IMG/VR virus record: IMGVR_UViG_2879770953_000002
Span: 1 to 11,672 of that record
DNA length: 11,672 nt
Source: a virus
Taxonomy: Duplodnaviria > Heunggongvirae > Uroviricota > Caudoviricetes
Strand: one strand, 5' to 3'
The notes beneath the pieces are model-generated. The model had not been told where the DNA came from, did no database searches, and was given only the letters and a program-made list of their open reading frames with translations. The position numbers and the translations under genes were made by a program. Below are positions 7,976 to 8,718 of the stretch, in pieces (the stretch's first letter is position 1; each line of letters begins with the position of its first letter).

Positions 7976-8539
7976 GTGGAAATTAAAAAAATCATTAATC
8001 CCCGTTATACCGAAAGTGGCGCAGTAGACTGTGACGTTTTTTTTGACGACAGGGACCAGGCAGTCCCCTACACAGCCACCGCTGATGATGTCGCACCGAC
8101 GGGTCAGCAAATCTGGCAGGAACTGCAAAGTGGCAAATGGGGTGAGATAGCACCATTCACTGTGACACCAGAAATGCTGGAAGCGGCCAGAGAGGCCAGA
8201 CGTCAGGAAATTGAAGCATGGCGCACAGAACAGGAGGCGAAGCCGTTCACGTTTGCATGGAACGGTCGCACGTGGAACGCTGACTCCTCGTCAGTGGCCC
8301 GCCTGTCCCCGGTGGTCATGCTGGCAAAATCTGTCGCGGCACAAACACATATGGTGTGGAGTGATGCGGATAATCAGCAGGTGAAACTGTCGATGCCGGA
8401 ACTGGAAGAACTGGCGGCAGCAATGGTGCAGGCGCAGGTCGATCGCAACGATGAGATTTATCGCCGTCAGCGTGAAATGAAAGAGGAGCTGAGCAGTCTG
8501 GATGATTTGGCTTCAATTCGGGCGTTTGACGTTGAGTAA
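7976..8539 (+). CDS. putative tail fiber assembly/chaperone protein, second paralog
   Basis: Preferred start is GTG at 7976 preceded by GAGGAA (7964-7969), giving VEIKKIINPRYTESGAVDCDVFFDD..FTFAWNGRTWNAD.., which resembles the central W-N-G-T-A-W region of Tfa proteins. The track's earlier start at 7916 has no ribosome-binding site. The C-terminus lacks the conserved Tfa tail. Confidence 0.5.
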   Translation: MEIKKIINPRYTESGAVDCDVFFDDRDQAVPYTATADDVAPTGQQIWQELQSGKWGEIAPFTVTPEMLEAAREARRQEIEAWRTEQEAKPFTFAWNGRTWNADSSSVARLSPVVMLAKSVAAQTHMVWSDADNQQVKLSMPELEELAAAMVQAQVDRNDEIYRRQREMKEELSSLDDLASIRAFDVE

Positions 8540-8718
8540 TGAATAAGCCGCAACTGGCGGAATCACAGAAGACCGCTTTGCTTACCGAAGCGGAGTCTGT
8601 CATCCGGCAGCCGGGGCGTGCTGTCAGGCTGAACAGGGAAACGGATGAATCAGGGGAGGCCCGGGGGCGGGCCTCCGTTTTTCCGGAGTCAGTCCGGTCT
8701 GTGGTTTATGCGATGTGA
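8539..8718 (+). pseudogene. remnant of a tail-fiber-assembly C-terminal region (59-codon ORF, probably not functional)
   Basis: ATG overlaps the stop of the upstream gene (TAATG). Translation MNKPQLAESQKTALLTEAESVIRQPGRAVRLNRETDE.. resembles the conserved Tfa/gpG C-terminal motif (AE..K.ALL.EAE..I.PL..AV.L..ATDEE). Similarity ends exactly where a GC-rich terminator hairpin begins (8655). Below the track's length cutoff. Confidence 0.3.
8655..8682 (+). terminator. rho-independent terminator closing the tail-fibre gene block
   Basis: Perfect 9-bp GC-rich stem GGAGGCCCG / CGGGCCTCC with a GGGG loop, followed by GTTTTT. On the minus strand no U-tract follows the hairpin, so it is unidirectional. 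Confidence 0.65.

Follow-up and report, generated by a model that had tools for sequence, protein, structure and literature searches.

What lies between the last tail-fibre-associated gene of this phage stretch and the ipaH gene on the opposite strand: a small gene, the remains of one, or the trace of the event that brought the two together? The window is the whole stretch of DNA that we analysed, 11,672 nucleotides (positions 1 to 11,672 of the IMG/VR virus record IMGVR_UViG_2879770953_000002, Caudoviricetes), and its features are collected in Table 1. As the preliminary description had stated, a 59-codon frame opens directly after the chaperone-type gene with a TAATG overlap, at 8537-8541, in which the TAA stop codon of the DUF4376 gene (8537-8539) shares a base with the ATG of the frame (8539-8541). 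The TGA of the frame (8716-8718) adjoins the ipaH stop codon TAA, which occupies 8721-8719 on the minus strand. We consider it probable that 8539-8718 is a fossil recombination joint and not a gene; this grading applies to the full account given below, with a single origin of the joint and a terminator role for the hairpin within it.

Table 1. Features of the window at and around the joint between tail-fibre-associated DNA and ipaH.
Feature	Position	Strand	Basis or remark
DUF4376-domain gene, tail-fibre chaperone-like, last gene of the stf-DUF4376 module	7916..8539	+	Pfam, PHROG
59-codon frame, chimeric, three unrelated pieces	8539..8718	+	Open reading frame list; in all likelihood no gene
3′ flank of the DUF4376 gene, ATGAATAAGCCGC	8539..8551	+	Accidental source of the ATG of the frame
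Relic from within a tail fibre assembly gene of the Mu U / P1 U / P2 G type	8546..8648	+	blastn, nhmmer, BLASTP
Intrinsic-terminator-like hairpin	8655..8682	+	Terminator scan, RNA fold; canonical for rightward transcription
ipaH 3′ flank travelling with the gene: right arm of the hairpin, T/A run, second small hairpin CCGGAGTCAGTCCGG (8683-8697)	8668..8718	-	Shared with pINV ipaH7.8
ipaH, 547 aa, N-terminal LRR and C-terminal NEL E3 ubiquitin ligase domain	8719..10362	-	Pfam NEL E 6e-77, LRR_TTSS E 1.5e-7
Perfect MxiE box, GTATCGTTTTTTTACAG	10481..10497	-	Pattern search, 0 mismatches; ~120 nt upstream of the ipaH start
CssrB small RNA (Rfam RF02799)	10490..10669	+	Full-length Rfam match, 230 bits (gathering score 76), E 2e-52
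Class I SAM-dependent methyltransferase, ybcY-like moron	10678..11346	-	Pfam methyltransferase families; 97-98 % identity to copies in E. coli prophages, K-12 DLP12 among them
Right-hand tfa fragment, C-terminal third of a lambda-type tfa (tfaX-like)	11496..11672	+	Pfam Caudo_TAP E 4.6e-26, positions 76-130 of 131; nhmmer E 1.2e-7

The middle piece of the frame derives from a tail fibre assembly (tfa) gene. A blastn search of complete E. coli genomes gave matches in 1,241 genomes, in most of them to annotated tail fibre assembly genes. These matches span window positions 8546/8551-8648 at 74-80 % identity with E-values down to 5e-15, and the same stretch matches the tfa genes Mu U, P1 U, P7 U′, P2 G and that of SfMu. 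A profile built from six tfa genes aligned by nhmmer to 8546-8648 with an E-value of 3.6e-23. The piece is 103 nt long, is 78-80 % identical in DNA to tfa of the Mu U / P1 U / P2 G type, and corresponds to nt 332-434 of a 528-nt tfa gene (codons ~111-145 of 175). In protein searches, the frame was 60 % identical to SfMu Tfa in a single BLASTP comparison (E 6e-12) and hit two PHROG tfa families with E-values of 8e-4 and 1.2e-3, while Pfam Caudo_TAP (PF02413) gave 16.3 bits (E 0.011), below the 22.1-bit cut-off, so the curated family threshold was not reached. The tfa similarity is stronger at the DNA level, and protein profiles respond more weakly. Since the similarity is significant, the objection that the frame might bear no likeness to Tfa proteins falls away, and common descent with the tail fibre assembly family is demonstrable from the alignments.

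The frame had been described as a C-terminal Tfa remnant, to be checked by a profile search. The search bears out the Tfa homology with the DNA profile, if not with Pfam; the C-terminal part of the claim needs correction as the relic is internal and truncated on both sides, with 331 nt missing from the start of tfa and 94 nt from its end. Relative to the Mu U, P1 U and P2 G proteins it is homologous to the start of the conserved C-terminal region (60 % protein identity over 33-47 aa) and covers positions 66-98 of 131 in the Pfam profile, an incomplete domain. Only 103 of ~528 nt are kept, without the N-terminal 110 codons and without the last ~30 codons, which include the W..Y..L..RVD...EWP motif. 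Moreover, the relic follows a DUF4376 chaperone-type gene and not its cognate tail-fibre gene, and conserved residues are mutated, with a 16-residue stretch of the family now reading RQPGRAVRLNRETDE. The relic is a pseudogene fragment, not a functional member of the family.

On its left side, the relic is joined within ~10 nt of the DUF4376 stop codon. The ATG and the first codons of the frame come from DNA that lies 3′ of the DUF4376 gene and does not code in ipaH-free relatives. On its right side, no search (blastn against E. coli, phages, nhmmer) takes the similarity beyond GATGA(A) at position 8648 (...RETDE). MAFFT and BLASTP showed a weak collinear likeness of 8655-8690 to the next part of tfa (LEAWERYSVL) after a 9-nt gap, made up of the pieces GGAGGC..GGG..CG, GTCAGTC and GAATGG; if this likeness were real, the relic would extend into the hairpin. 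In local alignments against six tfa tails, 193-355 of 500 dinucleotide shuffles scored at least as high, and the semi-global scores were marginal at best, being reached by 19-51 of 500 shuffles for four tails and by ~200 of 500 for two. In view of these shuffle controls and of the nhmmer end at 8648, a tfa similarity running through the hairpin to the ipaH stop was rejected as unsupported.

The last ~14-17 codons of the frame are 3′ flank of ipaH, which reaches from about 8655-8668 to 8718, and are common to the plasmid gene ipaH7.8. This pINV gene shares the flank from 8668 rightwards at ~90 % identity, with a degenerate copy of the stem further left; it lies in a different neighbourhood and has no detectable relic, the nhmmer tfa profile giving no match in its flank. 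ipaH9.8 shares 8705-8718 only. A stretch of the ipaH 3′ flank reads GTTTTTCCGGAGTCARTCCGGTCTG. By these comparisons, we place the true junction of tfa-derived with ipaH-associated DNA at 8649-8667, at the foot or in the 5′ arm of the hairpin. The breakpoint is bounded only to this interval because ipaH7.8 is the sole independent comparator and its left arm matches at 6 of 9 positions. No compositional break was seen at the joint, with GC at 52-59 % across 8400-9400; GC falls to 30-41 % only at ~9700, within ipaH. The preliminary description had proposed a left breakpoint of the cargo insertion inside tfa. A junction of tfa with ipaH DNA is indeed there, but it is not the stump of a resident tfa split by the insertion, as both ends of the gene are missing.

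The stem of the hairpin is formed by GGAGGCCCG (8655-8663) pairing with CGGGCCTCC (8668-8676) around a GGGG loop, and is followed by GTTTTT (8677-8682). The stem is perfect over its 9 bp, of which 8 are GC, and T5 comes next; the predicted free energy of the hairpin is -20.1 kcal/mol on the plus strand and -18.6 kcal/mol on the minus strand. No other perfect stem of at least 9 bp with a T-run after it is present in the window, and any such stem arose in 6 of 300 dinucleotide shuffles. The perfect GC-rich hairpin with a T-tract that had been noted earlier was thus confirmed, and it has the pattern of an intrinsic terminator (G+C-rich stem, 4-nt loop and T run directly 3′). Two details of its placement were less exact than described: the tfa similarity ends close to the stem but not exactly at it, with 6 nt between 8648 and the stem, and while the end of the frame touches the ipaH stop, the hairpin does not, its T-run ending 36 nt short. 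All 39 IMG/VR contigs with the 20-nt hairpin core carry the same flanks at 95-100 % identity, the 59-codon frame included, and on these matches the hairpin was rejected as a repeat element or as the terminator of another phage gene.

We infer both the terminator activity and the direction of the hairpin from its sequence. It could serve as a Rho-independent terminator that would halt rightward late (tail-gene) transcription before antisense entry into the convergent, MxiE-controlled ipaH gene, and it may double, less efficiently, as the 3′ stem-loop of the ipaH mRNA. Of all parts of the joint, it is likely the only one with a present-day function. It might instead be an element of ipaH itself (a minus-strand terminator, an mRNA-stabilising stem-loop or a bidirectional terminator) and not primarily a stop for the tail genes, which we regard as rather unlikely. 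The hairpin does lie in the flank that travels with ipaH, as seen in ipaH7.8, and 34-64 nt past the ipaH stop, a normal distance for a terminator; the minus-strand stem is almost equally stable, with a fold z-score of -3.8. However, the minus-strand stem is followed by CCUGAUUCAUCCGUUUCCC, with no U-run, the T5 being present on the plus strand only. The hairpin variants seen also keep pairing only in plus-strand RNA: C8676T leaves a G-U pair, and in the ipaH7.8 stem two transitions leave G-U and U-G pairs (-4.9 kcal/mol on the plus strand versus -2.7 on the minus strand), while all three give A-C mismatches on the minus strand. Termination of tail-gene transcription is the reading that we retain.

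The same joint recurs at other ipaH loci. The identical 59-aa frame lies beside at least five ipaH paralogues, of 547, 571, 583, 587 and 603/608 aa, at different chromosomal sites. This contradicts the earlier view, in which the joint marks where this particular prophage took up its cargo. Common to the chromosomal ipaH loci that we examined in Shigella and EIEC is a block that extends from stf/DUF4376 to 9501-9788, within the constant region of ipaH. The copies differ at ~10 positions in 261 nt, and the window is 99.4 % identical to a Shigella assembly (L008) over 6.1 kb; with copies so nearly identical there is almost no variation on which to judge selection on the frame or on the stem. The ipaHa locus (L004), in which stf codon ~13 is fused to the last 117 nt of DUF4376, was considered as an independent phage context and rejected; it is not independent evidence because it is a deletion derivative of the same arrangement. 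The data show that the joint arose once, in the tail end of an ancestral phage, and was then inherited or copied together with a conserved block of ~3 kb (stf - DUF4376 - relic - hairpin - 3′ constant half of ipaH).

Alignment with ipaH-free relatives, suggested earlier as a way to see whether an intact tfa occupies the site, gave two different pictures. Relatives with the stf-DUF4376 module share TAATGAATAAGCCGC to 8551 (E9, L005) or to 8557 (ECL27829, L006), and a small terminator or host DNA comes next. In them, the phage genes end with, or soon after, the DUF4376 gene (Rha and ash genes come after it in E9), and no tfa was found at this site. Relatives with the methyltransferase have an intact tfa at the equivalent site, and their methyltransferase lies between the tfa gene and a tfa fragment, as in the tfaD-ybcY-tfaX arrangement of K-12 DLP12. 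Similarity of the window to ipaH-free relatives resumes at 10638. The expected intact tfa is therefore present beside the methyltransferase and absent after DUF4376, and where present it is of the lambda type, with at most 67 % identity to the relic, over 30 nt.

The scar might have been made on the donor side, with relic, terminator and ipaH moving as a cassette from a Mu/P2/P1-like phage in which ipaH lay just downstream of tfa (U/G). We see this as possible, though on the whole improbable. The relic is of the Mu/P1/P2 type and lambdoid relatives carry lambda-type tfa or DUF4376 chaperones; the ipaH-free DUF4376 relatives are all without tfa DNA at the site, and relic, hairpin and ipaH are always together in the chromosomal loci. 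However, the tfa gene of a donor would be expected to be complete to its stop codon, which is not the case here, and ipaH7.8 has the ipaH flank without the relic. Furthermore, searches of phage, plasmid and E. coli collections turned up no donor of this kind.

We regard a wider reading of the conserved blocks as doubtful, less probable than a donor-side scar. The left block (stf - DUF4376 - relic - terminator - constant NEL half) and the right block (MxiE box/CssrB/terminator) would act as the homology arms of a cassette, between which the A+T-rich LRR half of ipaH (~9700-10362) would be swapped among prophages and between prophage and pINV by homologous recombination. The joint would be kept as its terminator insulates from phage late transcription, and ipaH7.8 would derive from a phage-borne cassette.

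The model of the preliminary description, in which ipaH with or without the methyltransferase was inserted in a resident intact tfa, leaving the frame as the left stump and 11403-11672 as the right one, appears quite unlikely. Tfa-derived DNA does lie on either side of the cargo, and the intact tfa of ipaH-free relatives ends ~15 nt before the 10638 hairpin, at which the ipaH-specific DNA of the window begins. However, the left piece is fused to the DUF4376 3′ flank and lacks the first 331 nt of a tfa gene, the two pieces overlap in tfa coordinates (Pfam positions 66-98 versus 76-130), and they belong to two lineages. The tfa of ipaH-free relatives is, like the right-hand fragment, of the lambda type and unlike the relic, and the junction is common to all chromosomal ipaH paralogue loci examined. 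We also considered the left and right pieces as direct repeats or gene halves and rejected this: BLASTP gave no alignment, the DNA identity was 67 % over 30 nt, and a repeat search returned nothing relevant. The right fragment is of the lambda type and does not align by BLASTP to the 59-aa frame, and therefore the two are not one gene split in two. By the coordinate overlap and the lineage difference, the model is largely refuted.

Regarding the coding status of the frame, RefSeq (PGAP) calls no CDS there in L001 or L004, and in two of the 39 hairpin-bearing IMG/VR contigs, L030 and L047, the loss of one nucleotide shifts the frame. A 59-aa protein family, phrog_7784, matches the frame over its full length (E 1.5e-44). 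All protein relatives of the frame are near-identical Shigella/E. coli copies of the same locus, some of them named 'tail fiber assembly protein, partial', and none was found beyond these copies by protein search and DNA scans. An Rfam scan of 8539-8718 gave no match. We rejected phrog_7784 as proof of a conserved gene because the argument is circular, its members being copies of this locus only. The earlier concern that the small frame could be a conserved gene in its own right thus has a full-length family match on its side, but that family consists of same-locus copies, two of them frameshifted. With PGAP silent, frameshifts, altered residues and no outside relatives, the frame appears not to be under selection as a protein; given the TAATG and the accidentally kept tfa frame, there may be a small chance that a peptide is produced. 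It is very improbable that the frame is a real small gene whose translation is coupled to that of DUF4376 via TAATG, for example a Tfa-derived mini-chaperone: although the original tfa reading frame is kept and the annotation of hundreds of contigs (766 index blocks) includes the identical protein, the ATG sits in DNA that is non-coding among relatives, the C-terminal third crosses the terminator hairpin and the ipaH 3′ flank, the sub-threshold Caudo_TAP match covers 33 of 131 positions, and the conservation reflects recent shared ancestry of the whole block (97-100 % DNA identity), not purifying selection.

The neighbours of the joint are those of a tail-fibre end carrying cargo. The gene to its left hits Pfam DUF4376 (E 1.1e-16) and phrog_1141 'tail fiber protein' (E 1.8e-88), and its counterparts in EIEC and E. 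coli relatives carry the annotation 'DUF4376 domain-containing protein'. The ipaH gene has both the LRR_TTSS and the NEL domain of IpaH/NEL effectors and is annotated ipaHe in EIEC, with 98-99 % identity. Upstream of it lies an MxiE box that agrees in full with the consensus reported by Mavris et al. 2002; by chance, 0.06 such boxes per window are expected. The terminator hairpin of CssrB (10638-10671) is the right edge of the ipaH-specific DNA, and a literature search for CssrB returned unrelated papers only. L001, L017 and L018 list the right-hand tfa fragment as 'tail fiber assembly protein, incomplete, missing N-terminus'. In the intact lambdoid prophage of the EIEC assembly L001 the order is gpG...gpJ-lom-stf-DUF4376-ipaHe-MTase-tfa′-dinI, then host btsSR at the prophage end, and the contexts in L012 and L016 are similar. 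The locus has the features of a moron or exchangeable effector locus: its cargo is not a phage gene, it sits where the tail-fibre genes of a lambdoid prophage end, near the attachment site, and it has its own promoter signal (MxiE box) and, in the ipaH-linked flank, its own putative terminator. On this account the ipaH-specific DNA is a self-contained moron of ~2 kb, roughly 8649/8668 to 10637, with the terminator on its left, and is wedged between tail-fibre chaperone debris on the left and a pre-existing methyltransferase-tfaX moron on the right.

Among the closest known systems are tfaD-ybcY-tfaX, at the end of the DLP12 prophage of K-12, and its intact stf-tfa-MTase-tfa′ equivalents in other lambdoid prophages of E. 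coli, where opposite-strand cargo is likewise bracketed by tfa DNA and a hairpin terminator lies between convergent genes. The right half of the window (10638-11672) is the same module at 97-98 % identity. In the DLP12-type module the left tfa is of the lambda type, full-length in L018 and L064, whereas the window has the doubly truncated Mu/P1/P2-type relic behind the DUF4376 gene and adds a second moron, the ipaH gene with CssrB upstream.

Exchangeable effector loci (EELs) were reportedly described in EHEC/EPEC lambdoid prophages by Tobe et al. in 2006. The present locus is like them in having a T3SS effector gene at the tail-fibre end of a lambdoid prophage (gpJ to dinI in the EIEC prophage), with its own regulatory signal (MxiE box) and an A+T-rich variable part. 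It differs from them in that the effector belongs to the IpaH/NEL family and the Mxi-Spa regulon, not to LEE, in the fixed left joint and constant 3′ half of ipaH common to the chromosomal paralogues examined, and in the heavy erosion of the prophage by IS elements in most Shigella copies. Chromosomal ipaH genes with phage remnants and IS elements are said to have been termed 'ipaH islands' of Shigella by Jin et al. in 2002; the window is one such island and does not differ in kind. These islands are mentioned in PMC4226921 and PMC6424224. In EELs, T3SS effector genes follow tail-fibre genes, next to the attachment site, and effector carriage after phage tail-fibre genes matches this locus (PMC3530523, PMC8112680). 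The general idea, put forward earlier, that tail-fibre and tfa regions are cargo sites agrees with these papers and with the DLP12-like relatives. We found no paper on this joint, or on the base-level anatomy of the left joint, in the literature searched.

For annotation, a 59-aa product that Shigella genomes commonly list as a 'hypothetical protein' or as a 'tail fiber assembly protein, partial', and that has its own PHROG family, can be cleaned up as a chimera of three parts and most likely no gene. At its left edge, the ipaH-specific DNA is pinned to a 19-nt interval at the terminator hairpin. Since the chromosomal ipaH copies that we examined have inherited the scar, it is an ordinary, if tidy, case of cargo collection at tail-fibre regions, and it leaves the current view of effector gene collection at phage tail-fibre regions unchanged. 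That these chromosomal paralogues share one ancestral phage joint speaks for a single origin of the genes on a phage, followed by their spread and by diversification of the LRR half.

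The window comes from a Shigella-type genome and comprises the tail-fibre end of a prophage in decay. A Shigella assembly matches it at 99.4 % identity across 6.1 kb, and an intact lambdoid prophage from an enteroinvasive E. coli (EIEC) at 98.6 % across 4.9 kb. A cluster of IS elements occupies 666-4199, with two IS3-family ORF pairs (666-1879, minus strand; 3043-4199, plus strand) and a phage-integrase-like ORF between them (2207-3004, minus strand). A tail-fibre frame of 624 codons is listed from 4105, and because this start still lies inside the right-hand IS, near its end, the N-terminal part of the frame is probably an insertion artefact.

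Gene order at the tail-fibre end of the prophage (window positions)
Feature	Position	Strand
Tail fibre assembly (tfa) gene	5982-6527	
Tail-fibre gene with prophage N-terminal domain	6551-7837	
DUF4376 chaperone-type gene	7916-8539	
59-codon frame	8539-8718	
ipaH	8719-10362	opposite to tail genes
SAM-dependent methyltransferase	10678-11346	opposite to tail genes
C-terminal tfa fragment	11496-11672	

The 59-codon frame follows the DUF4376 gene with the TAATG overlap described before. Protein profiles gave marginal hits for it, as Pfam Caudo_TAP scored 16.3 bits, below the 22.1-bit cut-off, and the PHROG tfa families matched with E ~1e-3. The DNA searches were decisive. Using blastn, we matched annotated tfa genes in ~1,240 E. 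coli genomes as well as U of Mu and P1, U′ of P7, G of P2 and tfa of SfMu, and all these matches span 8546/8551-8648. With an nhmmer profile made from six tfa genes of this kind, the alignment had E 3.6e-23 and ended at 8648. The similarity to tfa is real but short. The preliminary description saw here a C-terminal Tfa remnant ending exactly at the hairpin; the tfa origin holds, but the relic is internal (nt 332-434 of a 528-nt tfa gene, 78-80 % identity) and the stem begins 6 nt beyond the end of the similarity. A faint extension of the similarity across the hairpin as far as the ipaH stop was rejected, since it did not exceed shuffled controls and the nhmmer alignment ends at 8648.

Three sources make up the frame: the 3′ flank of DUF4376, the tfa relic, which was joined in its own reading frame by chance, and an ipaH-linked flank. 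The DUF4376 flank, which is kept to window 8551 in E. coli E9 and to 8557 in ECL27829, supplies the ATG and the few codons that follow (ATGAATAAGCCGC). In these two ipaH-free genomes the flank is non-coding, with a small terminator or with host DNA beyond it. In E9 (~5184-5215 of the locus) a small intrinsic terminator of -8.4 kcal/mol, TAATGAATAAGCCGCCATGAGCGGTTTTTTTG, comes after the DUF4376 stop; the window reads AAGCCGCAACTGGCGGAAT at the equivalent position, with the CCGC/GCGG stem retained and the T-run replaced by tfa sequence. The comparison suggests that the left joint formed within a DUF4376 terminator of the E9 type, possibly at the microhomology GCAACTGG/GCGG. Regarding the right side, plasmid-borne ipaH7.8 has ipaH4.5 and IS elements as neighbours, a setting quite unlike that of the window. 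It shares the flank from the stop codon leftwards to 8668, beyond which it has a degenerate version of the stem, while ipaH9.8 shares 14 nt past the stop and no more. Given this limit and the end of the relic, the boundary between phage-derived and ipaH-linked sequence is at the foot or in the left arm of the hairpin, within 8649-8667.

The 59-codon frame is most likely not a gene and should not be treated as one. RefSeq annotation leaves its interval empty in two EIEC genomes, and a 1-nt deletion breaks it in two IMG/VR contigs (L030, ~7390, and L047). The deletion falls in the run CCGGCAGCCGGGG (~ window 8609-8612) in otherwise near-identical DNA. Protein searches recovered Shigella or E. 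coli copies only, several of them already named 'tail fiber assembly protein, partial'. The full-length match to phrog_7784 was rejected as an independent family, as it reflects annotated copies of the same locus.

The reported GC-rich hairpin with a T-tract is present at 8655-8676 (GGAGGCCCG-GGGG-CGGGCCTCC), followed by GTTTTT up to 8682. A free energy of -20.1 kcal/mol is predicted for the plus strand and of -18.6 kcal/mol for the ipaH strand. It is the sole perfect stem of at least 9 bp with a T-run in the window, and a comparable stem with a T-run arose in just 6 of 300 dinucleotide shuffles. The Rfam search of the window gave no family at the hairpin. From its sequence, it appears to be a canonical intrinsic terminator for rightward transcription, which would halt the late tail-gene transcript before it runs antisense to ipaH. 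The stop codons of the frame (TGA, 8716-8718) and of ipaH (TAA, 8721-8719) do abut, but the T-run ends 36 nt before the latter. On the ipaH strand no U-run follows the stem, which could still terminate transcription weakly or form a stabilising stem-loop at the 3′ end. The few natural changes in the stem (C8676T and, in ipaH7.8, two transitions) leave G-U pairs in the plus-strand RNA and give A-C mismatches on the ipaH strand, a pattern that weakly favours function on the plus strand. The terminator at the scar is probably functional.

In an exact look-up, the 59-aa sequence occurred at different chromosomal sites, next to ipaH genes coding for 547, 571, 583, 587 and 603/608 residues, every copy found being preceded by a DUF4376 gene or fragment. 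In BLAST of the window against these loci, the common block runs from stf or DUF4376, where IS insertions or deletions fix its left end, to ipaH positions 9501-9788, beyond which the LRR-coding halves diverge. The 20-nt hairpin core occurs in 39 IMG/VR contigs, all 39 with the same flanks (95-100 % identity), and ~10 of 261 positions vary across the fetched copies. As the same joint with near-identical flanks is found at many loci, it is single in origin and was inherited or copied thereafter. The left breakpoint of the cargo was correctly seen as a phage/ipaH boundary, but the joint did not form when this prophage itself acquired the cargo. The ipaHa locus of EIEC CFSAN029787 was considered as an independent phage context and rejected, being a deletion derivative of the same arrangement. 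There (5850-6020 of that locus) the first ~13 stf codons (ATGTCTGTAGTGATATCAGGTGCGCTGACTGATGGCGCAG) are fused to the last 117 nt of DUF4376, and the relic-hairpin-ipaH joint is intact despite the internal deletion.

The ipaH-free relatives fall in two kinds. In the first, the stf-DUF4376 module closes with the DUF4376 gene and lacks a following tfa. Those of the second kind, with the methyltransferase-tfa′ module and among them K-12 DLP12 (tfaD-ybcY-tfaX) and the intact prophages of MS20653 and FORC_069, have a tfa immediately to the left. About 15 nt separate the end of this tfa from a long hairpin, and at this hairpin the similarity to the window starts (10638). The intact tfa expected at the empty site is therefore missing after DUF4376 and present beside the methyltransferase, yet it is lambda-type and at most 67 % identical to the relic, over 30 nt. 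The right-hand tfa fragment of the window likewise reaches at most 67 % identity to the relic over 30 nt, and the Pfam family coordinates of the two pieces overlap (66-98 for the relic, 76-130 for the right-hand fragment). With different tfa lineages and overlapping coordinates, the locus is a mosaic of at least two recombination events, probably three. The relic may have been left behind by the recipient phage, or it may have come from a Mu/P2/P1-like donor together with ipaH. One insertion into one tfa gene is rejected by the lambda-type mismatch and the overlap. The methyltransferase and right-hand fragment form the ybcY-tfaX module of DLP12 in K-12 W3110 (window 10638-11672), which thousands of E. 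coli genomes share at 97-98 % identity. In intact relatives it stands after stf and a full-length lambda-type tfa, and in two relatives (L018 and L064) a DUF4376 pseudogene follows it at the prophage end.

On its upstream side, ipaH has a perfect 17-nt MxiE box (GTATCGTTTTTTTACAG, 10481-10497, minus strand) ~120 nt from the start, and with its own box it would be regulated independently, in a moron-like manner. The block 10481-10677 is common to two 571-aa ipaH loci lacking the methyltransferase (L009 and L011, 85 % identity). A full-length match to the small RNA CssrB (RF02799, 'Chromosome-encoded Shigella sRNA B'; 10490-10669, plus strand, 230 bits, E 2e-52) runs divergently from ipaH, with 8 nt of its 5′ end inside the MxiE box. 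The terminator of the RNA (10638-10671) is the hairpin found between tfa and methyltransferase in ipaH-free E. coli prophages. CssrB is thus chimeric as well, made of ipaH-linked DNA and an older terminator of phage origin. G+C along the window shows no break at the relic/hairpin/ipaH joint. Values of 51-59 % in the constant NEL half of ipaH give way to 30-41 % in the LRR half and upstream (~9500-10400), and the fall starts near the end of similarity between the paralogue loci (9501-9788). The cargo has its boundary, in composition as in recombination, inside ipaH and not at its 3′ end. The LRR-coding part (9876-10110) displays 60-nt periodic self-similarity of ~69 % (off-diagonal BLAST, shift 60 nt).

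Effector genes after tail-fibre genes at the ends of lambdoid prophages are well described (PMC3530523), as are exchangeable effector loci (PMC8112680), and chromosomal ipaH genes are known in 'ipaH islands' (PMC4226921, PMC6424224). In K-12 DLP12 tfa fragments also bracket cargo, a familiar precedent for the arrangement in the window. The initial observation is confirmed and its interpretation partly supported: the locus is an ordinary recombination scar and a clean instance of the tail-fibre region collecting cargo. Our literature search found no paper on the base-level anatomy of the joint, which adds incremental detail to this known phenomenon.
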